The translations under genes were made by a program, and so were the position numbers. Below the pieces are notes generated by a model, which saw only the letters and a list, made by a program, of their open reading frames with translations, searched no databases and was not told where the DNA came from. Of a stretch of DNA of 44,686 nt, positions 1-32,954 are shown one piece after another. Positions within the stretch are counted from its first letter, which is position 1. Each line of letters opens with the position of its first letter. This stretch comes from an uncultured Methanosarcinales archaeon (GTDB lineage: Archaea; Nanobdellota; Nanobdellia; Woesearchaeales; CAZYIM01), in assembly GCA_964647565.1 (NCBI GenBank), contig CAZYIM010000022.1, positions 1 through 44,686 of the forward strand. The letters are read 5' to 3'.

Positions 1-3000
1 CGCATGTTGGTTGGTTGTCTTCACATGAACAGTTTCCAAAGCATGCATTATCTGCAGAATCATTAACTGTAATTGAATCAAATACATCATTGTTATTATA
101 ATCAATTAGCTTTAAATCTTGGCAACTATCCAAGAATTCTTCTGAACACTCATTAGGTCCACAATCATCATCACTATCACACTGCGCATCACAGATGCCT
201 GCAACACAATAGGTTTCTGAAGGTGGCTGTTCACAATTCACATCGCAATCTGAACAAGCACAGCTCTCAGTTCCGCAAGTATTATCGCAACTGTCATTGA
301 CTTCAATATCATTCAATAAAAAGTCCGCATTGAAATCTACAAGCTTAAAACCTTCACATGAATCATTGTAAGTTTCTGAACATTCATTTCCAGGACAGTC
401 AAGATCTTCATCGCATTGTGCGCCACATTCTCCTTCAACACATTGATAGTCATATGGATCTTCAACACAACCGCAGAAACTATTACAGTCGCCCAGACTG
501 TCTCTGGTTCCATATTGGTTGCCGTCGCAATGGCCGTTTTGTGTCTCTTGTGGACAATATATGTTATTGGTTGTTCCTGGTAGCTCACATTCTTCGCCAA
601 GACTAATCACTCCATTTCCACAGATTGGATCATTATGGCACTGGCAATCATCTCCACAATAATCTATTGTATTAGGATTTCTGTCACCACATTGTGAATC
701 TGCAGTACATTCAGCACCACAGAAGCTTTCAACACATTGATAATCAAATGGATCATAGATACAACCACAATCTCCATCACAATCACCAAATCCATCTCTG
801 GTTCCTAATTTACCACCAGAGCACATAATTGTTGGATACTGGCTACAATCATCATCATTCGGAGTATTTGGAAGTTCACAGTCCTCACCTGTACCAATAA
901 ATGTGTCTCCGCAAACTGCTTCATTATTACATACACAGTCTGAACAAGTGTCAACTGTTGTTGGATCCTGATCATCACAGTCTGAATCAATAGCACATTC
1001 TGCTCCGCATATATCTGCTACACAGTAAACATCTGGTTCTGGTATAGTGCAGTTGGTATCGCAGTCAGTACACAAGCAGTCTCTCTCACAAGTGTTATTG
1101 CATTCGTCTGAGACTGTGATATTATTCAAAAGCTTGTCTCCATTATAATCAACAAGCTCTTTGCCTTGGCACGAATCATATTCAACTTCTGAACAGCTGT
1201 TTGGCTCACAATCTAGTTCATCATCACATTCTGCGCCACACTCACCTTCGACACATTCGTATTCAAATGGATCATAGACGCAGCCACAGACATCGTCACA
1301 ATCACCAAATGCGTCTCTTTCAGCGTATTTGTTGCCTGAACAGTCTGAAGTGCTCTGATCACAATATGTGTTGTTAAATGTACTTGGAAGTTCACAATCC
1401 TCACCTAGATCTATGAACTCATTACCGCAAATAAGATCGTGTGAACATGTGCAATTGTCCAGACAAGTATCTATTGTATTACTATCTTGGTCGTCACAGT
1501 CTGCGTCAATTACGCATTCTGCGCCACATTCTCCGACAACACATTCATATTCAAATGGATCATAGACGCAGCCACAGACACCGTCACAATCACCAAATGC
1601 GTCTCTCTGAGCATATCTAGTTCCATTACAATCTTGTGTACTTTGATCACAATTACTGTTGTTAAATGTGCTTGGAAGTTCACAATCCTCACCGATATCT
1701 AGTTGGCCGTCACCGCATGTCAAATCATGGGTGCATGAACAGTTATCCAAACATGTATCGATAGTATTAGGATCAGAATCATCACAGTCAGCATCAATAG
1801 TACATTCAGCATTACACAAGCCGACAACACATTCAATTAATGGTCTTGGAGGTGGACACTCAACATAGCTATCCTCGCATGTACAGTCTCCGAAACATTC
1901 ATTAGGGACTGAGCTGTTGATCTGGACTGAATCATTGATCTGATTTCCATTATAATCCTTGAATTTTTGCCCTACACAACTATCATTGTATGTAGCAGAA
2001 CAAGTGCTAGGTTCACAATCATCGTCGCTATCACACTCAGCATCACAAACACCCTCGACACATTCAGGATGTGCAGGTGGTGGTGGACATTCAACATAGT
2101 TATCTTCACAAAGACACGAACCTAGGCAGTCATTACCTCTGGAACTGTTGACTGTCTTAAAATCCTTTATCCCGTTATTATTGTAATCCATTAATTTAAA
2201 ATCAACACATGTATCGTTGTATTGTGCAGAACAAGTACTTGCATTACAATCATCATTACTGTCACATTCTGCGCCACATACACCTGGTACACAATACTCA
2301 TTGGTTTGAGGCGGTGGGCAAGTTGGAGTGCAGTTTTCACAAGCACAATCCCGACCATCAGTACAGATGTTTTGACAACTATCATTAACAGTGGTATTAT
2401 CCAGGATCCTATTATCGTCATATTCAACTAGAGCCCAATGATGGCAAAAGTCTGAATAAGTCTCAGAACAGCCTGATGTGCCACAGTCTTGGTCATCATT
2501 ACATTCAGCACCGCAGATGGGTGGTACACATCCAGTTTGAGGCGTTGGCGGATCACACTGTGCTTGGTTATCTGTACAGTCACAATCGCCTTCACAAAAG
2601 TTATCTGCGCTATCATTGACCCACATTGTATCATATATAGAGTTATTGTTATAATCAGTAAATATAGCATGATAGCAATAATCATCATATTGTTGTGAAC
2701 AGCTATCTGCAGCACAATCTCCATCATCATCACATTCTGCTCCACATCTATCTTTAACGCAATTATATTCGAAAGGATCGTAGATGCAACCGCAAACAGC
2801 ATCGCAGTCGCCAAACGCATCCCTCACACCTAGCTTTTTTCCCGAGCATTCTTCTTCTGATTGGGGACAATATGAGTTGTAAATTGTATTAGGTAATTCA
2901 CAAGTCTCTCCAAGTGCAATCTCAACAATATTATCGCCACAATGGGGCAAATCGTCGTGATTACATACACAGGAGTTTAAGTCGCACCAGTCTGTGGTGT

Positions 3001-4168
3001 ATGCATTAGAATCGTCACAGTCGTCGTCTGAATCACATTCAGCTAAGCATTTGTCTTTTACGCAGGTTGGATTTTCCCAAGGATCATATGTGCATCCGCA
3101 GACATCATCACAGTCACCAAAACTATCCCTTGTCTTTAACTTCTTGCCTTCGCAAGCTTCACTGGATTGAGGACAGTCACTAGAATCATCATCATTAGGA
3201 GGCTCACAATCCTCCCCAGAATCAATAGTACCATCACCACAATAAGTAATATCCTCATGTTCACACAAGCATGTTTCTAAGTTGCAAGTATCTGTAGTAT
3301 GAGAATTAGAATCATCACAATCATCATCACTATCACATTCAGCATTACAACTGTCTTTCACACATACAGGGTTGCTCCAGGGATCATATGTACAGCCGCA
3401 CTCTGAATCACAGTCACCAAAACTATCCCTATATCTCGTTTTCTTGCCCACACAATCTTCAGAAGATTGAGGACAATAAGAAGATTCATCATCATTAGGA
3501 GGTTCACACTCTTCAAATGTATCTACTGTACCATCTCCACACCATAACCAGGGTTTCCATTCACATTCAAAAGAACATCCTTCTGTGTTGGGTGGGATTC
3601 CTTCACATTGCCAGTCTGCTGAACAACGTTCTTTACATATATCTACGTGAACATATGTACAGGTTGTAGGATCACAATAAGCATAAGTATCTTGTGGAAA
3701 AGAAGGTGCATCTTCGCAGGCATATTCATATTGATAGCTTCTTGGCCAGGCACCTGGCGATGGACCCCATCCTGAATAGGTTCCAGATGTCTCACACTCC
3801 TCTAGGCCTTCAACAGCGCCATCTCCACAAACAGGAGCATTTGGATCTTCAATACAGGCTCCAGTGTCACAAACATAGCCTATTGGGCATTCAACCCAAT
3901 TATCCTCTATAGGAAAAGGTTTACCACAATAGAACTCATTTACGTGGGTATTTGTAGGATTACAATATTCTTCCCTTGTAAAGCCTGCATATAATGTACT
4001 GCCCCGGACATAGATGTTATTTCCGCCGTCAGTATAATCTATACAGACTATATCTCCGGGCGAAGCATCTGTAGACGAGGTTATGAATGCGCTGATTAAA
4101 AATGTAAATACTACTGCTATTAGAAATATAGGTAATCTGGTTTTCGAGTTAATTTTAATATCCCCCAT
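1..4168 (-). CDS. Giant secreted Cys/Asp-rich repeat surface protein (>1389 aa, runs off the left window edge)
   Basis: Not in the ORF track because it has no stop in the window. Hand translation from ATG 4168 gives MGDIKINSKTRLPIFLIAVVFTFLISAFITSSTDA (signal peptide), then CGDG..GEDCELP, RDAFGDCDxxCGCxYDPF and CxAECxxDxDC repeats. The same frame holds at base 1. Confidence 0.9.
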   Translation of the reverse strand, partial: MGDIKINSKTRLPIFLIAVVFTFLISAFITSSTDASPGDIVCIDYTDGGNNIYVRGSTLYAGFTREEYCNPTNTHVNEFYCGKPFPIEDNWVECPIGYVCDTGACIEDPNAPVCGDGAVEGLEECETSGTYSGWGPSPGAWPRSYQYEYACEDAPSFPQDTYAYCDPTTCTYVHVDICKERCSADWQCEGIPPNTEGCSFECEWKPWLWCGDGTVDTFEECEPPNDDESSYCPQSSEDCVGKKTRYRDSFGDCDSECGCTYDPWSNPVCVKDSCNAECDSDDDCDDSNSHTTDTCNLETCLCEHEDITYCGDGTIDSGEDCEPPNDDDSSDCPQSSEACEGKKLKTRDSFGDCDDVCGCTYDPWENPTCVKDKCLAECDSDDDCDDSNAYTTDWCDLNSCVCNHDDLPHCGDNIVEIALGETCELPNTIYNSYCPQSEEECSGKKLGVRDAFGDCDAVCGCIYDPFEYNCVKDRCGAECDDDGDCAADSCSQQYDDYCYHAIFTDYNNNSIYDTMWVNDSADNFCEGDCDCTDNQAQCDPPTPQTGCVPPICGAECNDDQDCGTSGCSETYSDFCHHWALVEYDDNRILDNTTVNDSCQNICTDGRDCACENCTPTCPPPQTNEYCVPGVCGAECDSNDDCNASTCSAQYNDTCVDFKLMDYNNNGIKDFKTVNSSRGNDCLGSCLCEDNYVECPPPPAHPECVEGVCDAECDSDDDCEPSTCSATYNDSCVGQKFKDYNGNQINDSVQINSSVPNECFGDCTCEDSYVECPPPRPLIECVVGLCNAECTIDADCDDSDPNTIDTCLDNCSCTHDLTCGDGQLDIGEDCELPSTFNNSNCDQSTQDCNGTRYAQRDAFGDCDGVCGCVYDPFEYECVVGECGAECVIDADCDDQDSNTIDTCLDNCTCSHDLICGNEFIDLGEDCELPSTFNNTYCDQSTSDCSGNKYAERDAFGDCDDVCGCVYDPFEYECVEGECGAECDDELDCEPNSCSEVEYDSCQGKELVDYNGDKLLNNITVSDECNNTCERDCLCTDCDTNCTIPEPDVYCVADICGAECAIDSDCDDQDPTTVDTCSDCVCNNEAVCGDTFIGTGEDCELPNTPNDDDCSQYPTIMCSGGKLGTRDGFGDCDGDCGCIYDPFDYQCVESFCGAECTADSQCGDRNPNTIDYCGDDCQCHNDPICGNGVISLGEECELPGTTNNIYCPQETQNGHCDGNQYGTRDSLGDCNSFCGCVEDPYDYQCVEGECGAQCDEDLDCPGNECSETYNDSCEGFKLVDFNADFLLNDIEVNDSCDNTCGTESCACSDCDVNCEQPPSETYCVAGICDAQCDSDDDCGPNECSEEFLDSCQDLKLIDYNNNDVFDSITVNDSADNACFGNCSCEDNQPTC

Positions 4169-4236
4169 TTTACTAACGCCCCCATTATTATTACTCACCT
4201 CCATTCGAATAATAACAAAGCTTGTTTGCTCTTGTT

Positions 4237-5133
4237 TTAATCTTTGAATATTTTATCTTTGAATATAAACAGTAGGATCACAAGTCCTATTAGTACTAAG
4301 ATGCCAATGCCGATTACAACGTTTCCGCTGAGATCTCCAAATACAGCAGCGCCTGTAATCATATTATCATCTTCTGCGCCAAGCATATCGTTGTTACCTT
4401 CATCAAATGGAGTGTTTTCATCTTCTCCAGCAGCTCCATTTGGATTATCTGAAAGATCACAATCTCTTTGTTCTTCAGGTTTATCTGTTTCTGAATCGCA
4501 ATCATTTGCTTGTGTGCATACCCTGTCCTGCTTACCGCCGATGCATGGCAACCAGTCTGAGCATTCCCAGACCGCTACGCAATCAGCTGTTGTGTTAGTT
4601 GTATTTGTTGTATTAGTTTGATTATCATCAATTGTTGTGGTGCCGCCAAAGCCGCCTCCACCGCCGCCAGAGCCGCCATTACCTCCAGCAGGAGGTGGGC
4701 ATTCTCCGCAGTCAGCTACGCAATCAGAGCAACTTTCTCCTGCTCCGCAAAGGTTATCTCCACAGAATAGATCTCCTTCAAGATCCAAATCAATCCTAGT
4801 CTGTGCAGAATCAACGCTTGAATAGATGGTTTCTTCCTCAGTATCGTGATCTTTGATAAAGAAATTGACAGTTTTACCAGTCCGGTCTCCAAGTGGATCG
4901 CTAACAACAAATCGACCATCCTTTCCAAAGTAACCACTTCCTTGGGTTTCTCCTGCTTCTACATCTTCTCCATTGATTTTAGCGGTTACAAGGAGTCCAT
5001 CTTGTGCAGGTTGTCCATTTATGGTTACTGTTCCATAGAATTTATGTGGTGGTTGTAAGGATGGTACTGCTGCTACAATTGCAATTGAAAATAGAAATGT
5101 CAATATGAGCAATATTGCTAGAGTCAATTTCAT
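4237..5133 (-). CDS. Membrane-anchored cell-surface protein (signal peptide, PPHKFYGTVTING domain, Cys modules, Gly/Thr linkers, C-terminal TM)
   Basis: N-terminal hydrophobic signal; CGDxxC module; GGNGGSGGGGGG linker; WECSDWxxC module; ITGAAV followed by a TM helix and basic tail. Confidence 0.85.
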   Translation of the reverse strand: MKLTLAILLILTFLFSIAIVAAVPSLQPPHKFYGTVTINGQPAQDGLLVTAKINGEDVEAGETQGSGYFGKDGRFVVSDPLGDRTGKTVNFFIKDHDTEEETIYSSVDSAQTRIDLDLEGDLFCGDNLCGAGESCSDCVADCGECPPPAGGNGGSGGGGGGFGGTTTIDDNQTNTTNTTNTTADCVAVWECSDWLPCIGGKQDRVCTQANDCDSETDKPEEQRDCDLSDNPNGAAGEDENTPFDEGNNDMLGAEDDNMITGAAVFGDLSGNVVIGIGILVLIGLVILLFIFKDKIFKD

Positions 5134-5225
5134 TTTGTTTTTTACCCCCGATTAATGATAAAATAAAAAAAAAGAAAACAAAAAGTATATTTAAATCTTT
5201 GTATTTCGGGTTCGCTGTCGTCGGT

Positions 5226-7496
5226 TTATATTATTCCGAAGCCACCACCCCAAAAGCACATGCTTGTTGGAGCATAGATGTCTTGCTGATCAAGTTCTAG
5301 CCAATAGCCTCTTCCTGCATACATACGGTTGAACTGTCCAAATAGATCATGGCCAATCCATCCAGCTACGTGATCTCCGCAGTTGAAATAACTCCACAAG
5401 GATGAATATCTTGGGAAGCCTAGATTGGTGTCTATCAAAGATGATAGTGAACAGTAGATATTATCTCCATACACATACATCTCTGGGAAATCCCAGTCTT
5501 CTCCGCACATAACCTCAGCATCTTCCATGTTTTCGAACTGTTGCCATCCTGTTCCATAATATCCAATCAGGTTCCAGCCAGGATATAAATCCCTTGATGC
5601 TGCTGTTACAGGTCCTGCGCTAAACAAGCTACCACCAAGCACCAGAATCTCTTGTTCAAGAGTCTCAAATGCCCAGTATCCCCAACCCGGCAGAATCTCT
5701 GTTAGGGTATCTTCTGTCTCATTATCTGGGAACCAAGATAACCATTCCCCTGTTGCAGGGTCATAGGTCCAGACAGAGTCAACACCTTCAAGATCCTTAA
5801 AGACAGTATCCGGATCATTGTTGAACAAGACAAATGGCACAGAGATCAAGTTCCATTTCTTATACAATGGTATCTTGAAGCTTGTACCTTCAACCTTGAA
5901 CTTCTCGTCGTCGATAGGTCCTTTGTTGCCAAGAGCATCGATACAGTAGTATTGTAGATTGTGTTCACATTCTTCATGGAAGAGGAAATCATCAATCTCG
6001 CTTTCCAGACAGCAGAAGCCGTCTTCGTTTGTATCAAAGTCTCCACCATAATAGCTACAGTAGTCTTCTGTCATGTCTACAGCGTCCAGTTCAACATAGA
6101 AGCAAACGCTCTCATGATTTACTGGATGTGGATCCTGGTCAGCACACTCCAATGCAATAGGGGTTGTCATGGTGACTTTCCAGCAAGCATTTTCTTCCTG
6201 GCAAAACTCATCCAGGTCATAGAAAACAGCGCTTAGGCCATCCCATGGTGAGGCAGGCTCACCAACCTCTTTACTTGGTATTGGTGGTGTGTTGTCCACA
6301 AACACGCACTGTTTCTTGACATCTTCAACCTTTTCAACATTGTCTATGCTATAATATTCTATTAAATGGCATGACTCTTCTGGTATGTTAAAAGACTGAC
6401 TGTATGTCATGAAATCTCCGATTCCGACTGCATCATCACAGGATGGTCCCAGATCTTCATATTCACAGAATGCATCATCAACCAATGTCACTCTATAAAA
6501 GGTCTCGTCCACTCCTGATGGATGTGGTTCCTGATCAACAGGATTTAAGGAAATCACTGTCTCTGAGCTAATCCATTTAGGATATGAACTTGCGTCAGGG
6601 AATAGTGGTCCTTCATACGACTTGGTTGTCTCTGGTGCAGTATGGTCAGCGAAGAAGCACATATAGTTTAGTTCTTCAGCATTTTCCAGGTTATCCACTG
6701 AGTAATATTCAAGTATATGACATGACTCTTCAGGTTTATTGAAAGGTCCATCATATGCAATGAAAGGCTCATCTGGATTGTCTACAAACTGCGTGTAGTA
6801 ATCTGGATTACAGTAAACTTCTGGTGCCAAACAGGCCATATAACCTGAAGGATCTGTAGTTACCATGTTTCTCCAATAGGTCTCATATAAACCACTTGGA
6901 TGCGGTTCTGGATCTTCTGCTTCTAGATATACCATTGTCTGTAAGTCTATGTAAGTCACTTCATAGCATTCTGGATCAACAGGATCTCCTTCTGTTCCGC
7001 CTGTACAGAACATTTCTGTATAGATAGGACCAGTAAACCACTGTTCAGTCTCAGGTGGTACTGTCTCAACTGCAAAGTATTCCAGATCAATCTGGTTCCT
7101 GTTGCCTAAGGCATCCTCACAGTAAAATTCAAGGTCGTGTAAGCTGTCTTCTTGGAAGTTAAATGCAAAGAAACTCCCAAAATCAGGGAATTCATTCAGA
7201 CTCACATTTTCACAGCACCAGCCTTCATCATTTGGGGTACAGTATTGGTCTGTGATATCCTGGTAACCAAAATCGTCGTAAGACACCTTATAACAAAGCC
7301 ATTCCCAGTGTACAGGATGATCTCCTTCATCAAGACAGGTTAAATTTACAACCGTATTTTGAGTTACCATCCAGTCAATTCCAGATGTACACTCTGAAGG
7401 TACGGTTATCTGAACATCTTGTGTTGCAATTATTGAACCATCTCCCAATACCTTAACGAGGAAATTATAGATTCCTCCAGGTGTTCCTGCTGGCAC
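5226..7496 (-). CDS. C-terminal segment of the large acidic surface protein (ESCHxxEYYSxD repeats; WNLISVP/GWNLIG C-terminal domain)
   Basis: ORF track. The GTG start lies within continuous in-frame coding sequence reaching back to the TGA at 7569. Confidence 0.75.
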   Translation of the reverse strand: MPAGTPGGIYNFLVKVLGDGSIIATQDVQITVPSECTSGIDWMVTQNTVVNLTCLDEGDHPVHWEWLCYKVSYDDFGYQDITDQYCTPNDEGWCCENVSLNEFPDFGSFFAFNFQEDSLHDLEFYCEDALGNRNQIDLEYFAVETVPPETEQWFTGPIYTEMFCTGGTEGDPVDPECYEVTYIDLQTMVYLEAEDPEPHPSGLYETYWRNMVTTDPSGYMACLAPEVYCNPDYYTQFVDNPDEPFIAYDGPFNKPEESCHILEYYSVDNLENAEELNYMCFFADHTAPETTKSYEGPLFPDASSYPKWISSETVISLNPVDQEPHPSGVDETFYRVTLVDDAFCEYEDLGPSCDDAVGIGDFMTYSQSFNIPEESCHLIEYYSIDNVEKVEDVKKQCVFVDNTPPIPSKEVGEPASPWDGLSAVFYDLDEFCQEENACWKVTMTTPIALECADQDPHPVNHESVCFYVELDAVDMTEDYCSYYGGDFDTNEDGFCCLESEIDDFLFHEECEHNLQYYCIDALGNKGPIDDEKFKVEGTSFKIPLYKKWNLISVPFVLFNNDPDTVFKDLEGVDSVWTYDPATGEWLSWFPDNETEDTLTEILPGWGYWAFETLEQEILVLGGSLFSAGPVTAASRDLYPGWNLIGYYGTGWQQFENMEDAEVMCGEDWDFPEMYVYGDNIYCSLSSLIDTNLGFPRYSSLWSYFNCGDHVAGWIGHDLFGQFNRMYAGRGYWLELDQQDIYAPTSMCFWGGGFGII

Positions 7497-7568
7497 TGTA
7501 AAGGTGATGTCAAATGCAACGACTTCTCCTCCGCCAACATCTGTATGGGATAATGGTGTCCAGTCAAC

Positions 7569-9878
7569 TCAACTCTCAAAGCCAACTGAAGGCTCTAGGG
7601 TTAAGACACCAATCTGTGTAGTCACAGTCTCTATAAGTCCAACAATCTGGTCAGGTAAGTTTGCTGAATCAGTAAGCTCTGAAAGGATTCCTCCTGTCTC
7701 AGTTACAGCATATTCCCATGGACCAGTACAACCAAGACCAAGGCTTGAATCAACAGCAACAACTGTTATTCCTGCAGCAGTTAGGTCTGCAACAACATCT
7801 GCCCAAGCAAGGTCATCTGCTGTTCCAGCAATGCCGTCAGGGCCGGGATCAACACCAGAGGTACTCATATCACAATTGTCACCAGGGTAGTTGCCTACGT
7901 TACAATCATGAGGTATATTGTCCTCAAATATGATTACAACTCTCCTTGAGCCTGTTCTCCATCCCATTGATAGAGATTCAGACAGAGCCCTTGAATAAGC
8001 TTCTGGACCGTCTGAGCCAGATCCAAGGGTTAGGCCATTAATTGCAGTGCTTACTGCATTGTTGTCCTGTGTTATATCCTGGTCAAGACTCCACGGATAA
8101 TCAGGGCTAACTCCATATAAGTCTAAATAACCGCAGTAGTCATATATATCTGTATAATCCATGAATGAGCCAACTCCAAAGGCAGCGTTTGCAACCTCTG
8201 CGTTGATATCAGTCATTATATCAATTGCATTAGTCTTAGCCTCATTTAGCACTCCGCCCATGCTTCCTGTCAAATCAAACAAGAAGACAACGTCAAGGTT
8301 CTGTATGGGGACCTCTGCAGTTGTGATGACTTTATGCTCTTGGACTGATTCCTCAGGTCCAAGGGTTACAACCAAGGAAGCTGGATCAACAGTTGCACCA
8401 GTTCCTTCTGGAATTGATTCCGAAGCAGTAAATTCTACCTGAGGTGTTTCCACGCAATCTCCGCCTTCTCCGATGAAGATACTTGGTTCGCCCACATCTT
8501 TATTTCCAGTAGGAGGCGTATTATCTACAAAGACACACTGCCTGTTTGTCACTTCTGTATTGCCTAGCAGATCTACACTATAAAATTCTATCAGATGGCA
8601 GGACTCTTCAGGAATTGAGGTGCTCACATGATCACCATCAATTACAGTCCAGTCACCTGTCCCTTCGAATTGGCATGTAGGCATACATTCCGAATCATTC
8701 ACATCAAGTAACGTGATTCTATAATTAAGTGTATCAACTCCAACCTTAACATCAGAGGCAGTGAACGTTATTGGTGTTGAAGATGTTATCCAATGTGGAT
8801 ATAATCCCCAACCTATTTCATGAGCCCATCTCATTATGAAAGGCAAGCCATATTCTTTTACAGTTACAGGAGGTAATGAGTCAACCTTGAACTCTTCAAG
8901 ATCATCAACCCAATTTCCGAGCCAGTCAACACAATATACATATATCTCGTGTGTTGAATCCTCTGTGAAAAGAACATCTGCATAATCTGTGAATTGGCCG
9001 CTATCAACCAGTTCGCTGGTATCATCATGGTACCAGATAACTTCGTAATAACAGTAGTCGATTCCTACAGCGCAGATTGGACCTTCATCATGAGCCTCTA
9101 TATGGACTCCGCTGTTACCATTGTCAGCTACAAAACACTCGTCAGCTGTACCTGGAACAGGTGGGCATTCATCTAAAGGATAGTAGTTTCCGATCATGGT
9201 CTTTGTTATGACTGGTTCTGTTGTGTCTACCTTATATGTTCTGAATTCATGATCAGATTCCTTTTCAACAGCATCCTTACACCAAACTTCAAGTTCATGC
9301 ATTGAATCCTCTGGGAAGAACAGTTCATAGTAGGTACCCTGATAGCTTCCAGTTACTGCTGGTCCGCCGTCAACTGTGTAGCTCCAGAAGATAGTCACAT
9401 CGTCGCTTGGATGAGGTCCTTCATCAACACACTCAAGATAGATAGGAGTATCTTGTTTGATCCATTCAAATCCAGAATCAGGAATTGATAGCTGTCCTGT
9501 CTGAACAGATAGAGTTGGAGGTGTATGGTCTGCGAAAACACACTGCCATTTCAAATCTTCCTGATTTCCAACCAGGTCAACAGAGTAGTACTCTATAATA
9601 TGACATGATTCTTCAGGGATTAAGAATGGTTCTGTATATGTCTCCCAAGATCCTGGGAATTCTCCAGGAGTCCACACATCGCATAATTCAGGCACATAAC
9701 AGTAGTCCCAATAGATTGGGTCTTCTAGCCAGATAACCCTGTAGAATGTGTCCTCGATTCCACCTGGATGTGGTTCTTGGTCTATAGGAGTCAAGACGAT
9801 TTCTGTGATACCATCAATCCATTTTGCACCTGTTGTAGGACAAATCTTCATAGGTCCTTCATAGGTTTTGGTGGTCAA
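7569..9878 (-). CDS. Middle segment of the large surface protein: beta-rich repeats plus von Willebrand A domain
   Basis: Repeats EESCHIIEYYSVD; VWA MIDAS-like DVVFLFDLTGSM, GSDGPEAY and WRTGSRRVVIIFED. Confidence 0.8.
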   Translation of the reverse strand: MTTKTYEGPMKICPTTGAKWIDGITEIVLTPIDQEPHPGGIEDTFYRVIWLEDPIYWDYCYVPELCDVWTPGEFPGSWETYTEPFLIPEESCHIIEYYSVDLVGNQEDLKWQCVFADHTPPTLSVQTGQLSIPDSGFEWIKQDTPIYLECVDEGPHPSDDVTIFWSYTVDGGPAVTGSYQGTYYELFFPEDSMHELEVWCKDAVEKESDHEFRTYKVDTTEPVITKTMIGNYYPLDECPPVPGTADECFVADNGNSGVHIEAHDEGPICAVGIDYCYYEVIWYHDDTSELVDSGQFTDYADVLFTEDSTHEIYVYCVDWLGNWVDDLEEFKVDSLPPVTVKEYGLPFIMRWAHEIGWGLYPHWITSSTPITFTASDVKVGVDTLNYRITLLDVNDSECMPTCQFEGTGDWTVIDGDHVSTSIPEESCHLIEFYSVDLLGNTEVTNRQCVFVDNTPPTGNKDVGEPSIFIGEGGDCVETPQVEFTASESIPEGTGATVDPASLVVTLGPEESVQEHKVITTAEVPIQNLDVVFLFDLTGSMGGVLNEAKTNAIDIMTDINAEVANAAFGVGSFMDYTDIYDYCGYLDLYGVSPDYPWSLDQDITQDNNAVSTAINGLTLGSGSDGPEAYSRALSESLSMGWRTGSRRVVIIFEDNIPHDCNVGNYPGDNCDMSTSGVDPGPDGIAGTADDLAWADVVADLTAAGITVVAVDSSLGLGCTGPWEYAVTETGGILSELTDSANLPDQIVGLIETVTTQIGVLTLEPSVGFES

Positions 9879-9881
9879 TGG

Positions 9882-10382
9882 TCAAGAAGTATCGATGCAT
9901 ATGTCAAGATTGACAAACTGCCAGAATTCATTTACATCTCGCGTCTCCATTCGCCAAGGTCTGCAGCATTCACCAGGAGGTGTATCGGCAGTGAATGTGA
10001 AGAATTCAGATGTTCCTGGTAGAATCTCAGAACCAGGTTCAGCATTCCACTGACAATAGTTGCCGAAGATAGTAGTTCCAGTAAATGGGCCCCACCATCC
10101 AGGTTTTACATCACATTGCAAGTTCGTGAACTCATTATGCTCGTAGATCCTGAATTCGTGAATAGAATCCGCAGAACCAGGTTCATTCGTTACTGTGACT
10201 GTAAAATCAACAGGAGCACCGCCTGTAACCACATAAGGATCGACCGACAATGTTGCAACGTGTGTCTCGATCACGGCTTTGTTATCGTCTTGTGCTTCTG
10301 CAGTTGCAAATACGGCAACAACTAAAGCCAAGACAACCAAAATAGAAATAGCACTTAGGCTAATTATTTTTTGTTTGTTCAT
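9882..10382 (-). CDS. N-terminal segment of the large surface protein (signal peptide plus Ig-like domain)
   Basis: MNKQKIISLSAISILVVLALVVAVFATAEA signal peptide; RBS GGGGTGG 8 nt upstream of ATG 10382. Confidence 0.8.
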   Translation of the reverse strand: MNKQKIISLSAISILVVLALVVAVFATAEAQDDNKAVIETHVATLSVDPYVVTGGAPVDFTVTVTNEPGSADSIHEFRIYEHNEFTNLQCDVKPGWWGPFTGTTIFGNYCQWNAEPGSEILPGTSEFFTFTADTPPGECCRPWRMETRDVNEFWQFVNLDICIDTS

Positions 10383-10568
10383 TTTCTTATCCACCCCACA
10401 ATTACGTCTCCTATTGGTGACGAAGTTGTGTAAAAATGTTTCTCCTCTATAATACTAACAATTACAAAATAGTATGTTGAGATATATATATAAATTTTTT
10501 GCTAAAACCACTAAAATCAAGAACGAAAATTTTTAAAACCTTTCGGTAGCAAAAAACTTAAAAAATAG

Positions 10569-14429: not shown

Positions 14430-17400
14430 ATGTTTCGGGCAAACCATAAGCATCCAATTGATAACATTATAGAATCTGGAATTGAACAATTTCTTGACAT
14501 CTCAAATTATTATTCTCTTGCAACTAAAACAGCTCTTCAGATGACTGGAAAAGATATTGCACACTCATATCCTTCAAAAATCGCAAAATCCGCATATACA
14601 AAGTCCATTGATAACTTCTGGGCAAATCAAAACCTTGAAACACAGCTAAAAAAGGGAATATTGCCTAATCTTGATCTTTATTTAGTTGATGATGTTGAAA
14701 TTTTACATAATCTACAAAGAACAAGAAATCAAAAGAGTTTCATGGCAATGCATGCGCCTGACCTGTTTAATGGTAAGGAAGCAACATATAATCATCCAAC
14801 TGTAGGAGATTTCAAGGCAATTCATGTACCAGGAAAAGACATTCTTGGCATGATGGCCCAGCTCTATAAAGGAGAACTGATCACAAACAAGACAGTTAAA
14901 GACTCACTTAAATCTCTCGAGAAAAATATTGATGCCTCTTTGCAATCAAAGACAGAAAATCTCACTAAACTAAAGGCACTTGGCGAAAGCCTTCAATTGG
15001 ATTCATCTCCCGAATCAAATGAAATGATCAAGGAATATGCCAGAGATTTGATGATGAATATGTTCGAATGCATAGAACATCTTTTAAGAGAAGGCGTTCA
15101 AAACGCAGACGGCTCATGGAAAAATAAGGAAGAAAACAAGATCAATATTTCATTAGATAAGATAAATCGCACTATTAAAATAGAGGATTATGGTTGTGGA
15201 ATGGATAAGAAAACCTTAGAAAAGGTTTTTTTTAACATCCATGCATCGCTTTATGAAGCACTTGACCATGCAGCTGGAAAGTTCGGAATAGGGGCAATAA
15301 GTTTTTTTGGAGCTGGACATGAATATGTCAAAGTGGACAGCAGGACTGTTAATGGAAAAGGAGGCTCTTATATCATAGACGAACATCTTGACCGTAGCAA
15401 GCATCAACCTCCCCAAAGGCAAAACCATGGAACTACAATAGAAATCAAGCTTAAGCCAGATTCTACATTTAATTTCGACTTGGCTGAAACTTTAGTAAAA
15501 AGAGATTGTTGCTATGTTAAAACTCCAACTTTTTTGAATGTCAATGGCAAGACAGAGATAATTAATAAGGACCTGACACCAGAATCGACCAAAACACTAA
15601 AATCTTTTACAGAAAAATCTGTTCAAGGTCATGTTAAGAAAGTACCTGGTAAAGGCAAACTTGATCTGCTTGACCATGATTTAAGACTCGATTCTGTTGA
15701 AACTGAAGGTTTTTCTGGTGCCATAAATTGTTCTGGCCTTGAAACTACCTTTTCTAGAGACAGCGTTAGGGAAGATCCTGTCTTAAAAGATGTAATTGAA
15801 CATGCATATCTGATGAGAGAAGAGCTGGATTTAGATATTGTTGAAAAGCAAAAAATATCTCGAAAACAAAGATTAAAAGGCTTTTTGAAATTTTCTCGAG
15901 AATCTTTGTTCAATGAAGACGGTTTGTTAAGAGAAAAATGGATACGTGATAATATTCTTTCTAGTCTGGATAATTATAAAGAAGCAGATGCTTTAGATCT
16001 AACCCAATTTAATAACACTAAACATAACACATCTTTAACCTTAGGAATATCAACAATTTCTGAATTTTTAAATATAAATCCTTTGAACGGCTCATATAGG
16101 CTTTTTAAGAGCCGAAAACGAGGGCGAAAAAGGAAAGTTACTCTTAATGATAAGATATTCAAGACAAAATATCTGAAAAAGTTCATAACTTCAGACATGT
16201 GGAAACCACTAAATCTGGCATATACAGGATTCAACGCATTTATCAGCTATTATACACTGGATTTTACCACCAAGCTGCTCCAGGATTTTAATATTGATAC
16301 AAAATTGGTTGTTCCGGGCTTACTTTCACTATATCCCATATCTATGGGTATAAAATCCCTGAAGAATAAAATAATCCGAAAAACTGTCAATAAACAGGCA
16401 ACTAGTCATCTAGAAGACAGTTTAGCAGATTCAGAAGAAGAAAATACCATCAGACGCATTAACAGAGATCCAATATATAAGAAAATTCCAAGATATATTC
16501 TTAAGGGTGCGTATGCACCTTTGAAGTTCACTTTTTATACAATGCCCAAATTTGTTGGTTCTAAAGTGTATAGCGGAGTTACTAATACCTATAAATTTGC
16601 CAAAAAAACAATCAACAAAATTATCCATTATGATTATTCAAGAATTCCAAAAGCAATTGCAAATGCGTATCTAGCGGCGGTAACTTGGGTAAAAGAGCAT
16701 TTCACCTTAAAAAACATCATTAAATATGGAACCCGGGCAGCCATTGGTGCAGCTTTTCTTGTTGCTGCAGTGGGTATAACCCAGTATGGTGCTTCTAAAA
16801 TCAAGACATCTACTAAAGCAAGATATGACAGGTTTGAGATACCTTCCAAAACTGTTGAGAAAATGCCCAATTTCATAAAAAAGATGATTCCAGAAGGAAA
16901 AATAGCTCATACAACCAGAACAAATTGGAATGAAGAGAAGCTAGCAGATTATTTATTAGATAATCCCGCATTTATGGACCCTTTATCCAGTTCTTCAACG
17001 TATATAAAAGATGATGGTCTTGAATTATTTGAAGAAGGAGACCATTCGATGCCAACTCTTGACAAGCTTAAGAAGAATCCTGAGTATGATCCTTATGGAT
17101 TTTTTAATCAGTTGGCAAGAAATATCAGAAAAAGATCGAACAAAAGGCATAAAGAAAAAGTGAAACCTGAAGCTGAAAAGGAGATTTATTCCCCAATTGA
17201 TGATCTTGCTCTTCTTGAATTACTCGGCAGGAATGTTGAAAATGGCCACGAGGTTAGTTCAACTGCAGATTATCTTTCAATAGTCAATGGCAAGCCATTC
17301 TGGACTAACACAGGGAAAAATGTTTTGACCATTTCAGGTATAGATGACCTTTTTTCAGATGGCCTTAAACTTAATAAGGATGTATCTAGGTATGATCTTC

Positions 17401-18680
17401 TCTCAGCTGTTGCAAGACACGTAAAAGGTATGAGATACGGTCCTATAAGTGATCAGGAGTTTAATGAACATGGAAGTGTGTTAAAAGCTATTCATAACAC
17501 CCGCCATGGATTATGCTTGGGCATTAATTCTTATGCAGCAGCCCTTTTGTATGAATTGGGCGAGGATGATTTAAGAATGGCTTTTAATGATAAGAATCCT
17601 CACGGCTGGCTTCAAGTGAACCATGGGACTATAGAGAATCCTGATTGGACTGATTATGACTGTACACCAAGCAAGTTAACAAATTCTTTTGCCAGGGCAA
17701 TGAAACGTGCTAATCAAAGATATGCTGATAAAAAAAAGAGGATGGAAAGCTTTCCATATAAGACAATAAAATCAGCTAAAAAAACAATAACAGACTTGCT
17801 TAAGAAGAAGGAAGAAACATTAAAGACTAAAGAAGATTCTTTAGAAACAAGTTTCCCCCATCCTGCTGACCTAACAGAACTTGGAAAAGGTATTGATAAG
17901 CAACAGCCTCCTGAAGAAGGAACGAGAGTAATTGAAATAATTAATGGAGATACCTTGATATTGATACATTCTTCAGAAACAACCTACAAGGGAGCTGCAA
18001 AAACGCCATCGAAAGAGAAGTTCAAACTAGTCCCTTCCCCAACGCCAGGTATTAAAACAAAACAAAAAAAGGCTGTGACTAAGTCTAAAACAGTTACTGA
18101 CACCAAAAAGAAAGAAACTGTCTATACAGATACTACAAAGGTCGACTCTAGCTTAACAGCAGTGGTTGGCTCTGATTCTTTAAAACAAGAAGAACATCCA
18201 ACTATGTCCGAAGATTCATTAAGAATCAAAACACAATACCAGGAACCAACTAAAGATCCTTTCGACCTTATCATCCCGCTTTCTGCGGTAGGATTAGGCA
18301 TTCTTGGGACAGCAGGATACCTGGTTTACAGGAAGAGAAGGAATGGGATTGAAGAGATCCTTGAACAAAAGATTATTGAACCAATTGAACCTCCTCAGCC
18401 TGTAATAATAATTGATGAACACACACTTTATGTGGATGAGATAAAAAAGCTGGCAGAGATTTACCTGCCAGAGAGTGTAGAGTTTAAATTAAACAGAGAA
18501 CTAGAAAGCAGTCAACCAAGATATACTTTAACAAAGGATATGGTTGTTATCAATGCACACAGGGAAAAACTACATCCTTTACTTGTGACTTTGGATTATG
18601 CAGCACATATCCTCAAGGATGAAAAGATTGCTAAGACCTTGATTACGCAATATGAAACTCTAAAAGAGGTGCGGACATAA
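14430..18680 (+). CDS. HSP90-like GHKL ATPase - transmembrane - transglutaminase-like fusion protein
   Basis: GHKL motifs REGVQNAD, IEDYGCGM, GKFGIG, HGTTIEI. Transglutaminase-type triad GLC...HGW...DCTP. TM helices AAIGAAFLVAAVGI and LIIPLSAVGLGILGTAGYLVY-RKRR. Confidence 0.75.
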   Translation: MFRANHKHPIDNIIESGIEQFLDISNYYSLATKTALQMTGKDIAHSYPSKIAKSAYTKSIDNFWANQNLETQLKKGILPNLDLYLVDDVEILHNLQRTRNQKSFMAMHAPDLFNGKEATYNHPTVGDFKAIHVPGKDILGMMAQLYKGELITNKTVKDSLKSLEKNIDASLQSKTENLTKLKALGESLQLDSSPESNEMIKEYARDLMMNMFECIEHLLREGVQNADGSWKNKEENKINISLDKINRTIKIEDYGCGMDKKTLEKVFFNIHASLYEALDHAAGKFGIGAISFFGAGHEYVKVDSRTVNGKGGSYIIDEHLDRSKHQPPQRQNHGTTIEIKLKPDSTFNFDLAETLVKRDCCYVKTPTFLNVNGKTEIINKDLTPESTKTLKSFTEKSVQGHVKKVPGKGKLDLLDHDLRLDSVETEGFSGAINCSGLETTFSRDSVREDPVLKDVIEHAYLMREELDLDIVEKQKISRKQRLKGFLKFSRESLFNEDGLLREKWIRDNILSSLDNYKEADALDLTQFNNTKHNTSLTLGISTISEFLNINPLNGSYRLFKSRKRGRKRKVTLNDKIFKTKYLKKFITSDMWKPLNLAYTGFNAFISYYTLDFTTKLLQDFNIDTKLVVPGLLSLYPISMGIKSLKNKIIRKTVNKQATSHLEDSLADSEEENTIRRINRDPIYKKIPRYILKGAYAPLKFTFYTMPKFVGSKVYSGVTNTYKFAKKTINKIIHYDYSRIPKAIANAYLAAVTWVKEHFTLKNIIKYGTRAAIGAAFLVAAVGITQYGASKIKTSTKARYDRFEIPSKTVEKMPNFIKKMIPEGKIAHTTRTNWNEEKLADYLLDNPAFMDPLSSSSTYIKDDGLELFEEGDHSMPTLDKLKKNPEYDPYGFFNQLARNIRKRSNKRHKEKVKPEAEKEIYSPIDDLALLELLGRNVENGHEVSSTADYLSIVNGKPFWTNTGKNVLTISGIDDLFSDGLKLNKDVSRYDLLSAVARHVKGMRYGPISDQEFNEHGSVLKAIHNTRHGLCLGINSYAAALLYELGEDDLRMAFNDKNPHGWLQVNHGTIENPDWTDYDCTPSKLTNSFARAMKRANQRYADKKKRMESFPYKTIKSAKKTITDLLKKKEETLKTKEDSLETSFPHPADLTELGKGIDKQQPPEEGTRVIEIINGDTLILIHSSETTYKGAAKTPSKEKFKLVPSPTPGIKTKQKKAVTKSKTVTDTKKKETVYTDTTKVDSSLTAVVGSDSLKQEEHPTMSEDSLRIKTQYQEPTKDPFDLIIPLSAVGLGILGTAGYLVYRKRRNGIEEILEQKIIEPIEPPQPVIIIDEHTLYVDEIKKLAEIYLPESVEFKLNRELESSQPRYTLTKDMVVINAHREKLHPLLVTLDYAAHILKDEKIAKTLITQYETLKEVRT

Positions 18681-21783: not shown

Positions 21784-21987
21784 AAGCCTCCGGCGAGAAT
21801 TGAACGTTCAAAACTTGTTTTTGAACTTCAGCATGACCAAAGGGAATGCTGTAATCGCGAAGCGAGTTAATTCTAAGCCTCCGGCGAGAATTGAACGTTC
21901 AAAACTTGTTTTTGAACTTCAGCATGACCAAAGGGAATGCTGTAATCGCGAAGCGAGTTAATTCTAAGCCTCCGGCGAGAATTGAAC
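21784..21987 (-). repeat. Tandem 91-bp direct repeats, each ending in the 22-nt 3' end of tRNA-Thr
   Basis: AAGCCTCCGGCGAGAATTGAAC at 21784, 21875 and 21966 (period 91); the two 69-nt spacers are identical. Confidence 0.95.
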
Positions 21988-22050
21988 TCGCGACCTCGTG
22001 CTTTTTGTTTTTAATACCAAGCACGCGCTCTACCGCTGAGCTACGGAGGC
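21967..22050 (-). tRNA. tRNA-Thr(GGT) with 12-nt intron at 37/38
   Basis: Acceptor GCCTCCG/CGGAGGC; anticodon stem CGTGC/GCACG; loop TT-GGT-A; intron 22003-22014; T-arm GCGAG-TTCAATT-CTCGC; no encoded CCA. Confidence 0.92.
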
Positions 22051-22125
22051 TTAGTAGAAAAAGATTAAGCTGGTGTTTTTAAAGATTTCTCTAAAAATTA
22101 AAAAAAAAATAAAAAATTAAAAAGT

Positions 22126-29365: not shown

Positions 29366-29767
29366 ATGGTTGAGTTAAAATATCCTGAAGACATGGGAGA
29401 ACTGATTTATTTTACTAGAAGAGTGATTGGAGATGGCAAGGCAATGGCCTGGGTGTTCAAGGAGGAATGCCCAGTATGTCACAAGGCTAAGATGGGCAAG
29501 CCTGTCGAAAAAGGCAAGGTCAAGATACGGGCAACTGAATATATCTGTCCTGAATGTGGTCATTCGGTCGAGAAAGCCGAGTATGAAGATACCTTGACCG
29601 CTAATATAGATTATGTCTGCCCTAAATGCAAACATGCAGGCCAAATCCAGATCCCCTATAAAAGAAAAAGCTTTCAAGGTACAAAAGCACTGGTCTTTCA
29701 ATGTGAAAAATGTGGTGAGAAGATCCCTATCACCAAGAAGATGAAAGAGCCTAAGAAAAAGAAGTGA
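29366..29767 (+). CDS. Zinc-ribbon protein with four CxxC pairs
   Basis: CPVC, CPEC, CPKC and CEKC; GGAGGTG RBS; poly-Lys tail. Confidence 0.85.
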   Translation: MVELKYPEDMGELIYFTRRVIGDGKAMAWVFKEECPVCHKAKMGKPVEKGKVKIRATEYICPECGHSVEKAEYEDTLTANIDYVCPKCKHAGQIQIPYKRKSFQGTKALVFQCEKCGEKIPITKKMKEPKKKK

Positions 29768-30697
29768 TCAGTCAAATGCGCCATATATTTCTGGTTGGAT
29801 CACCTGTTGAATAGTTTGAGGAGGCTTTTTGATCAGTGTTTCAAATTTAGTCCCGTGCTTAATTTTGTATAGGATCATATTATATGCCAATTCATCATGA
29901 TTAGGAAGGTCTCCGGGAATTTTTAGAAAATGTTTTATTGCCTCCTGCTCAAACATGAGCGGATTATAGTTGTCATCCGTCCATTCCATCATCTCATCAT
30001 GTTCTGGATCGAGCAACTCTTTTAATGACGGATCTCTGAACATTTCGTCACATTCCTGATTTCTTATCTTTTCAGGATCATCATCCTTAGCATTAAAAAT
30101 AAGGCCTAACTGCACATCCTGGGTGAGTTGTAGCTTCTGTTCATGATCTATCTTTATTCCATATCTTCTCAGATATTTATTGCTTGCCTTCTCCGCGCAT
30201 TCAACAGCCATATACATACTTGCAGCCTGTATAAAGGAGAGATATACATAACCCTGTTCCAAGGTAGGCTCACGATCAATCAAATCATCGATATAAGGCA
30301 TATTCAAGTTCTCATTTTTAGATGCGATGAACAATCTGGCCATCCCACTTAGCATCAGGTATTTTCTGTGAGCTATCAGCTGTCCATCGTGACTAAAATA
30401 CAACTCAGGAACAGTACAGCCAGTCTCATTGATAAACCTGGCCTCCTCTATCAAATCCCAATCCTCAGCAAGGGCTTTTAAGATATATACATCATGATTT
30501 TTCTCATCAGTGAACATAGTCGGTTCGAACTGAAAATTAAGGGCCATTTGAGACCTTAATGCATCTTCTTGATATGATAACCAACCGATCTTAAAATTTG
30601 GTTTATTAAATTTCTCAAATCTTTTCTTAAAAAGGGAAAAACAGTTATCAAATTCTTTTTCTAATGACAATAATACCACCTGTACCATAAGAAACAA
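29768..30697 (-). CDS. Hypothetical protein
   Basis: ~300-aa ORF; start uncertain (AGGTGG RBS suggests a TTG a few codons in). Confidence 0.65.
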   Translation of the reverse strand: MFLMVQVVLLSLEKEFDNCFSLFKKRFEKFNKPNFKIGWLSYQEDALRSQMALNFQFEPTMFTDEKNHDVYILKALAEDWDLIEEARFINETGCTVPELYFSHDGQLIAHRKYLMLSGMARLFIASKNENLNMPYIDDLIDREPTLEQGYVYLSFIQAASMYMAVECAEKASNKYLRRYGIKIDHEQKLQLTQDVQLGLIFNAKDDDPEKIRNQECDEMFRDPSLKELLDPEHDEMMEWTDDNYNPLMFEQEAIKHFLKIPGDLPNHDELAYNMILYKIKHGTKFETLIKKPPQTIQQVIQPEIYGAFD

Positions 30698-32671: not shown

Positions 32672-32783
32672 AACAATGCGCCGGCCGGGTCGTGTAACCT
32701 TGAAGTTACTGTGCCCCGGCAGGACTACAGTTTCTAACAAAACTAGAACAATCTTATCAAGAAATAACAATGCGCCGGCCGGG
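32672..32783 (-). repeat. 18-bp direct repeat of the tRNA-Gly 3' end flanking a 76-nt hairpin-rich insert
   Basis: AACAATGCGCCGGCCGGG at 32672-32689 and 32766-32783 (offset 94). Confidence 0.9.
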
Positions 32784-32856
32784 AATCGAACCCGAGTCGC
32801 AAGCTCTTTGCATTTGCATATGGCAAGCTTGAATTCTACCGCTAAACCACCGGCGC
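32771..32856 (-). tRNA. tRNA-Gly(GCC) with 15-nt intron at 37/38
   Basis: Acceptor GCGCCGG/CCGGCGC; CAAGC-TT-GCC-A; intron 32806-32820 forms a clean BHB (TTGC/GCAA); T-loop TTCGATT. Confidence 0.95.
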
Positions 32857-32954
32857 ATATAGGTAAAAATTATTGAATTGGAATTTAAAGAAAAAAAAAG
32901 AATTTATAAAGTTTATGAAATGGCTCGACTATTTCAAAACTTCAAAATACAGCT

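Follow-up and report, generated by a model that had tools for sequence, protein, structure and literature searches.

In-frame TGA codons in two adjacent giant surface-protein genes of an uncultured DPANN archaeon, probably recent nonsense mutations under the standard genetic code

The 44,686-nt contig CAZYIM010000022.1 of an uncultured archaeon (assembly GCA_964647565.1, GTDB order Woesearchaeales), hereafter called the window, carries on its minus strand a gene for a giant secreted surface protein, gene A, the reading frame of which is interrupted by two TGA codons and stays open beyond each of them. Such in-frame TGA codons in the genomes of uncultured archaea are often flagged as possible new genetic codes, and the locus raises the question of whether UGA is read as sense here, is leaky, or is an ordinary stop. 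The explanation we consider probable is that three recent, independent one-base nonsense mutations have struck two adjacent giant adhesin-like genes, gene A and its neighbor gene B, in a DPANN archaeon using the standard code, the gene A locus being a worked negative for claims of a new code.

Gene A as one frame with two TGA codons

Translation of the minus strand from position 10382 down to 5226 gives a single frame of 1718 codons followed by a terminal stop, with exactly two internal stops, both TGA, at codon 167 (9882-9884, TGA1 at site 1) and codon 938 (7569-7571, TGA2 at site 2). Under translation table 11 the gene falls apart into three open reading frames (ORFs), 9882..10394, 7569..9878 and 5226..7496, with 170, 769 and 756 codons, respectively. 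Beyond TGA1 the first ATG comes after 10 codons, and beyond TGA2 after 66; the lack of an RBS or signal peptide on the downstream pieces was judged by eye. An intact homolog of 1688 amino acids, P0011, aligns with gene A in one high-scoring segment pair (HSP) running from residue 163 to beyond residue 1570 and spanning both stops, and since this alignment is collinear across both TGA codons, there is no hidden frameshift in gene A. The original prediction, made from the DNA letters alone, had described one 1718-codon gene with two in-frame TGA codons and no frameshift across more than 5 kb, and both descriptions hold; the peptides that it quoted are present in the translation.

With the middle piece of gene A as a database query, 324 longer proteins of 1,347-3,845 amino acids were found at E ≤ 1e-10, the best of them being 41-51% identical to the piece and several covering 97-100% of it. 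The groups given by those sources that name homologs of the family are DPANN groups. The NCBIfam model NF047446 matches the gene A protein with an E value of 9.7e-36 in three stretches, and the locus combines OmpL47-type modules, a conserved C-terminal domain and an adjoining gene for a small membrane-anchored partner. In these respects gene A resembles the giant OmpL47-type module proteins (NF047446), which are likewise Cys-rich, consist of repeated modules, end in a conserved C-terminal domain and have a conserved partner gene. It differs from them in being interrupted and in having a von Willebrand factor A (vWA) insert, which is common to a subset of the family such as P0009 to P0011. Three Pfam vWA-type models (PF24909, PF00362 and PF25106) all scored under their cut-offs on this insert, which aligns strongly with the vWA regions of P0011 and P0009. 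Residues ~1497-1620 have many matches in giant proteins of related archaeal genomes. A putative TATA-like, A+T-rich stretch is seen about 100 nt upstream of the gene A start.

Sense residues and short tandem repeats at the stop sites

In the 78 homolog alignments spanning site 1, the column of the stop contains P in 44 cases, A in 15, K in 6, S in 3, E in 3, D in 2, G in 2 and other residues in 3. At site 2, W is found in 9 of the 11 spanning homologs, and the remaining two have L and D; P0011 also has W there. The third TGA of the locus lies in gene B, at positions 17098-17100 of genome contig C43, and G occupies its column in 244 of 347 module alignments, these being taken at up to three per protein and hence not independent. 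A TGA outside the locus, in a radical-SAM gene (C11:7014), falls on a column with G in both of the solved homologs. The original suggestion that Trp fits the second site is thus confirmed, and comparison with homologs shows that relatives carry sense codons at both gene A sites and that TGA is not conserved at either. With Trp, Gly, Gly and Pro/Ala as the residues typical of the four columns, no single decoding of TGA fits them. Site 1 falls in a tolerant linker or turn position, as does the site in gene B. A single base change separates each TGA from a codon for a residue present in its column: TGG at site 2, GGA in gene B and in the radical-SAM gene, and TCA or GGA at site 1, where the residue one base away, Ser or Gly, is a minority residue only.

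Matches to the family at E ≤ 1e-5 were obtained in 55 of 401 genomes of the order, a tally that includes the unpublished G131, G205 and G207 with one weak match each, and internal stops occur solely in the genome studied here: none was found among the 54 other matching genomes of the 401 searched or among 120 listed intact proteins. Two candidates of G083 and G105 that appeared to have a TAA inside were rejected, the stops being the genes' own terminal ones. The only metagenome relative found, locus L017 (39% identical), is broken in another manner, namely by a 16-base tandem duplication (ACATTAACAGCAACT+1) at positions 6553-6584 and a one-base deletion at ~7675 of a 527-kb metagenome contig, with the adjoining paralog and partner gene intact. 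Judging by the sequence of this relative, members of the family do get inactivated. Giant DPANN adhesin-like genes may often be switched on and off in evolution, and such turnover may belong to the way of life of these symbionts.

Both gene A stops lie within short tandem repeats. TGA1 is enclosed by (TTGACCA)x2, the sole tandem repeat in gene A with a unit of at least 7 bases, and TGA2 by a repeat of period 5 (Table 1). Codons lying wholly inside a perfect two-copy repeat are few: 34 of the 1718 (2.0%, the focal ones included) for units of at least 5 bases and 4 of the 1718 for units of at least 7. If the inferred ancestral codons are put back (TGG at site 2), both repeats become imperfect by exactly the changed base. 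Misalignment-templated substitution is a known mutational mechanism, the signature of which is a changed base that perfects a repeat. The completion of a short tandem repeat at both sites suggests that both gene A stops arose by templated mutation, through a route able to generate TGA specifically, and this would be why both of them are TGA.

In the explanation that we prefer, recent nonsense mutation, TGG (Trp) would have been converted to TGA at codon 938 of gene A and a codon one step away, GGA or TCA for instance, at codon 167, the third change, in gene B, being most likely from GGA (Gly) to TGA. The likely route for the gene A changes would be transient strand misalignment on the imperfect repeat, with the neighboring TTGAC being copied. 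With TGA as an ordinary stop, gene A as written would give a secreted stub of 166 residues, and the full-length product would be lost. Gene A is similar to other nonsense-interrupted surface-protein genes of prokaryotes in that its premature stops stand at positions where relatives have sense codons, it codes for a large, fast-evolving surface protein, and a relative's copy, L017, is frameshifted. It is unlike them in that all three lesions of the locus are TGA, come without any frameshift and are accompanied by no detectable loss of conserved residues.

These last features deserve closer attention. The nearest relatives being only 39-60% identical, synonymous sites would be saturated, and for this reason a conserved-column test was used in place of dN/dS, in which retention of the columns at least 80% conserved among homologs was compared with that in intact homologs. 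In five segments gene A keeps 18/19, 110/119, 61/64, 47/53 and 142/154 such columns (medians for intact homologs 0.90-0.93), and gene B keeps 151/163 of them downstream of its TGA, while no frameshift, TAA or TAG was found inside the ~3,950 codons of genes A and B. A random nonsense change would be TGA with a probability of 0.31-0.35 as calculated from codon content, and for all three locus stops to be TGA p is ~0.034, a post hoc value that is softened by the repeats. Three changes in one locus in so short a time is also somewhat above what a simple neutral model gives. Furthermore, the TGA of gene B has no repeat of the kind seen in gene A, that of the radical-SAM gene merely abuts (GAATC)x2, and the depth of 1-6x in the public assemblies considered below leaves coexisting intact alleles undetectable. 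All these points speak against recent ordinary nonsense mutation as the whole explanation. Nothing else is damaged in either gene, and therefore either the changes are evolutionarily young, as our preferred explanation has it, or leaky readthrough maintains selection. Regarding the proposal that two nonsense changes had occurred in a decaying gene, the first half is upheld by the sense codons of the homologs and by a plausible ancestral codon one base away from each TGA. Of the second half no sign is visible, the columns being retained and any further lesion lacking, a state compatible only with very recent inactivation.

TGA as a terminator and the competing readings

In the 2.68-Mb genome, which is 87% complete, frames of at least 200 codons end with TAA in 861 cases, TGA in 624 and TAG in 359 (1844 in total). 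Within the window, ORFs ending at 29767 on the plus strand and at 29768 on the minus strand match the TGATCA that had been quoted as evidence of TGA being a true stop elsewhere, in agreement with these genome-wide counts. With 120 or more open codons required on both sides, 118 stops remain (72 TAA, 32 TGA and 14 TAG), most of which separate neighboring genes and have an ATG no more than a few codons away; in neighboring gene pairs Pfam domains end just ahead of the TGA. For the census of in-frame stops 34 stop-joined candidates and 13 more with laxer flanks were run against Pfam with the stop written as X, six of the 47 also being run against NCBIfam; two of the three locus sites failed a stricter second candidate filter. 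Among the 47 candidates, those outside the surface-protein locus in which a domain continues across the stop comprise one TGA case, one TAG case and one weak TAG case. The TGA case is the B12-binding radical-SAM gene already mentioned (C11:7014-7016; L042 481-483), in which both Pfam and NCBIfam models continue through the stop. The TAG case is a class I methyltransferase (C16:14824-14826; L035) with PF13489 matching residues 33-187 and the X at residue 161, and the weak one is a PEP-utilizer fragment on C66 with a match below the cut-off. A genome-wide excess of in-frame TGA over TAG was not found outside the locus among these 47 candidates, for which long flanks and known domains were needed, and the in-frame TGA codons detected in the genome amount to four.

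Two minor observations were made during this census. The TGA of the radical-SAM gene sits at the Gly of a G-[IV]-E-S motif, beside the (GAATC)x2 repeat. Tandem paralogs of ~650-840 amino acids are joined in frame by TAA at C25:8776, C25:10828, C47:13757 and C6:86233; these junctions are nearly identical (...aaaaactaTAAttttttatattagttcttc...), the next ATG always being 11 codons on.

The genome possesses genes for aRF1 and ribosomal protein S8e, in keeping with its archaeal identity. The aRF1 protein (TIGR03676, 408.5 bits) is canonical and contains the class I release-factor motifs TASNIKS, YxCxxxF (as Y-R-C-D-K-E-F) and GGQ, its stop-recognition motifs being unaltered. In this 87%-complete genome the best match to the tRNA-Sec model RF01852 scored 22.2 bits versus the gathering score of 47, and PF05889 and TIGR00476, used for SepSecS and SelD, gave no matches at E ≤ 0.01 (PSTK and aSelB were not searched). 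Ten tRNA genes pass the Rfam cut-off, nine of which exceed 73 bases in length, suggesting introns, and most tRNA genes seem to be hidden, missing or unusually built. ARAGORN reported 8-18 tRNAs with default settings and hundreds of implausible candidates at low thresholds. A tRNA with the UCA anticodon was not found in this incomplete inventory, in which merely 10 genes pass Rfam; the low-threshold tca and cca candidates gave no Rfam matches at E ≤ 1 in six loci, and the best tca cloverleaf is poor. Two tRNA genes lie in the window itself, each with a short insertion and an ARAGORN identity depending on the intron mode: Leu(taa) or Phe(aaa) at 21966-22051 and Ala(tgc) or Gly(gcc) at 32770-32857.

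The sequence surroundings of the four in-frame TGA codons have little in common. The following base is C, G, G and A, and no RNA structure was detected in the 120 nt after each TGA, with z values of -1.32, -1.67, -1.71 and +0.76 and 13-155 of 200 shuffled sequences folding as well. Back-up stops within three codons follow TGA in 27% of cases, TAA in 20% and TAG in 14% before correction. This surplus after TGA was rejected as an artefact of abutting ORFs, the corrected counts being 26/122 for TGA, 65/296 for TAA and 16/118 for TAG (p 0.70). Ribosomal hopping across the tandem repeats was also considered and rejected on codon reading, as no landing codon matches the one that precedes the stop.

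Of the alternatives to recent nonsense mutation, the one that survives best is leaky, unprogrammed readthrough of UGA by a near-cognate tRNA, most plausibly tRNA-Trp, with some full-length protein still being made. UGA is the leakiest of the stops, and tRNA-Trp is its usual natural suppressor in bacteria and eukaryotes. We hold this reading to be rather unlikely, and the same must be said of its evolutionary side, by which TGA changes would be mildly harmful and persist, TAA, TAG and frameshifts would be purged, and Trp inserted at codon 938 would restore the wild type. It would account for three out of three locus lesions being TGA (p ~0.03), a bias for which the tandem repeats supply a mutational reason as well, and for genes A and B being otherwise intact, with conserved residues kept at the normal rate downstream. 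The Trp column at site 2 and the tolerant linker or turn positions of the other two stops of the locus are further points in its favor. Against it, the yield of readthrough, low to begin with, would be multiplied down by two stops in series. The in-frame stops are also concentrated in this locus: other giant ORFs, such as a 3875-amino-acid frame on C1, are uninterrupted, and outside the locus one TGA stands against one or two TAG. The back-up stop surplus that might have pointed to leakiness is gone after abutting ORFs have been taken out, the base following TGA varies from site to site, downstream folding is unremarkable, and aRF1 is canonical.

Programmed readthrough or recoding yielding nested isoforms, as put forward in the original prediction, received no positive support: the stops are not conserved, the columns are mixed, aRF1 is canonical, the Sec machinery searched for was not found, RNA structure is lacking in the stretches folded and in-frame TGA is no commoner than TAG beyond the locus. 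A search of sequencing runs gave no RNA run that contains the stretch. Gene A shares with systems of tRNA-Trp suppression or programmed UGA readthrough, the latter as in the coat/A1 gene of phage Qbeta, an in-frame UGA followed by a long, open and conserved frame and one Trp column. It departs from these systems in its unconserved stops, in the lack of a shared context or structure and in having two stops in series.

Were UGA termination leaky in this DPANN lineage, TGA would be the only codon able to interrupt long surface-protein genes without abolishing them, a possibility that we put forward tentatively and at a low probability. A little full-length adhesin would then be made by near-cognate decoding, which would crudely throttle the translation of giant and costly surface proteins, and this would be the first archaeal stop-codon readthrough outside selenocysteine and pyrrolysine insertion. 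As far as the consulted parts of two publications go, archaeal stop-codon readthrough is established only for these two amino acids (PMC8211752; PMC8037382). A literature search for DPANN stop-codon recoding found nothing on the subject.

An artefact of consensus calling or assembly in a metagenome-assembled genome of low coverage, or else a minority allele that entered the consensus while most cells are intact, is an improbable explanation. Logan contigs from four marine runs belonging to two studies gave 53 pieces on gene A, all of them at least 99% alike and with zero differing letters. TGA1 is bridged by contig pieces of runs X1, X2 and X3, and TGA2 by a listed piece of run X3 alone; the piece coordinates of X1 and X3 are nearly the same, and the two runs may represent a single data set. 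Public assemblies from this marine population thus show both TGA codons without change, as read from contigs of low depth. Contig depth over gene A is merely ~1-6x, a level at which rare alleles are invisible and parts of the gene are without cover in single runs, and the same genome also has a TGA in the radical-SAM gene and a TAG in the methyltransferase gene, all of which an artefact would accommodate. The presence of TGA1 in independent contig sets from at least two samples, and of TGA2 in a listed contig of one run, argues for stops that are real. Library damage has G-to-T as its known signature, which might be counted in favor of an artefact, but the change at site 2, from TGG to TGA, is a transition and not G-to-T.

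True recoding, with UGA as a sense codon for Gly (code 25), Trp (code 4) or selenocysteine, be it throughout the genome or at programmed sites with nested isoforms, is highly improbable, and the mixture of residues in the columns already goes most of the way to refuting it: Gly columns hold two of the four in-frame TGA codons and a Trp column one, but with W, G, G and P/A no one meaning fits, TGA closes about a third of the long frames, the four in-frame cases are the only ones detected in 2.68 Mb, the stops are absent from all homologs examined, aRF1 is canonical, the tca and cca tRNA candidates fail Rfam, tRNA-Sec, SepSecS and SelD were not found in the 87%-complete genome, and homologs have no Cys at any of the sites.

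The comparison with known codes leads to the same place. Genomes with code 25 (Gracilibacteria and Absconditabacteria, UGA = Gly) or code 4 (UGA = Trp) are resembled in the TGA codons at two Gly columns and one Trp column, whereas here TGA is a frequent terminator, the in-frame cases number four and stand for differing residues, and the release factor is unchanged. The candidate meaning UGA = Gly, prompted by the Gly columns of gene B and the radical-SAM gene, was dropped on the Trp column of site 2 and the Pro/Ala column of site 1. Archaeal selenoprotein genes, in which UGA = Sec and a selenocysteine insertion sequence (SECIS) lies in the 3′ untranslated region, have in common with gene A an in-frame UGA in an archaeon. 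In contrast to them, the columns here hold W, G, P and A and never Cys, and the sites are structural loops or linkers, not redox positions. Selenocysteine was rejected on these columns and on the missing tRNA-Sec, SepSecS and SelD matches.

Gene B, the partner gene and coordinates of the locus

The features of genes A and B and of the partner gene are listed in Table 1. Window positions 1-55 match, letter for letter, the final 55 bases of genome contig C43 (18111-18165), so the two contigs probably abut, and because of this end identity gene B is taken to continue on C43. In this arrangement gene B has ~2,240 codons and shares 60% identity with gene A over its C-terminal 470 residues.

Table 1 Features of the surface-protein locus (window coordinates unless stated otherwise)
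Feature	Position	Strand	Basis or remark
Gene A: secreted Cys-rich multi-module surface protein with OmpL47-type beta modules, 1718 codons	5226..10382	-	Translation, P0011 alignment, NF047446
Start ATG (10380-10382) and first 30 codons, predicted hydrophobic signal peptide or membrane anchor, MNKQKIISLSAISILVVLALVVAVFATAEA	10293..10382	-	Sequence reading
TGA no. 1, codon 167, in the inter-module linker motif [IV]-D-x-[TS]-X-P-x-T-x-K	9882..9884	-	Translation, homolog columns
Perfect tandem repeat (TTGACCA)x2 enclosing TGA no. 1	9872..9885	-	Repeat scan
vWA-like (integrin-beta-like) domain, residues ~690-930, boundaries approximate	7593..8315	-	Alignment to the vWA region of P0011 and P0009
TGA no. 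2, codon 938, in the motif PGFE-x-W-[VIF]-x-W-[TS]-P, directly after the vWA domain	7569..7571	-	Translation, homolog columns
Twelve bases of period 5, GAGTT GAGTT (equally GTTGA GTTGA), enclosing TGA no. 2	7564..7575	-	Repeat scan
Conserved C-terminal domain, residues ~1500-1718	5229..5885	-	Matches in many genomes
True stop TAA of gene A	5226-5228	-	Sequence
Partner gene, intact, 298 aa: N-terminal signal, Gly/Thr-rich linker, Cys-rich part, C-terminal membrane anchor	4237..5133	-	Between genes A and B
Gene B: giant Cys-rich paralog, N-terminal 1401 codons, runs off the contig	2..4204	-	Continues on C43 from 18165 down to 15595

The partner protein shows 45% identity over 102 residues (E 1e-24) to the product of a gene coding for 250 amino acids that adjoins the homologous locus L017 (P0002 versus P0003).

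The G+C content is 0.40-0.43 over the surface-protein locus (window 1-10400) and 0.33-0.39 over positions 10400-44686. The higher value of the locus probably reflects the composition of its acidic proteins, which are rich in Gly, Pro, Cys and Trp. Farther along the window, positions 14430-18680 contain an ORF for 1416 amino acids with a weak GHKL/HATPase_c match below the cut-off, followed with a 1-base overlap by an ORF for 418 amino acids.

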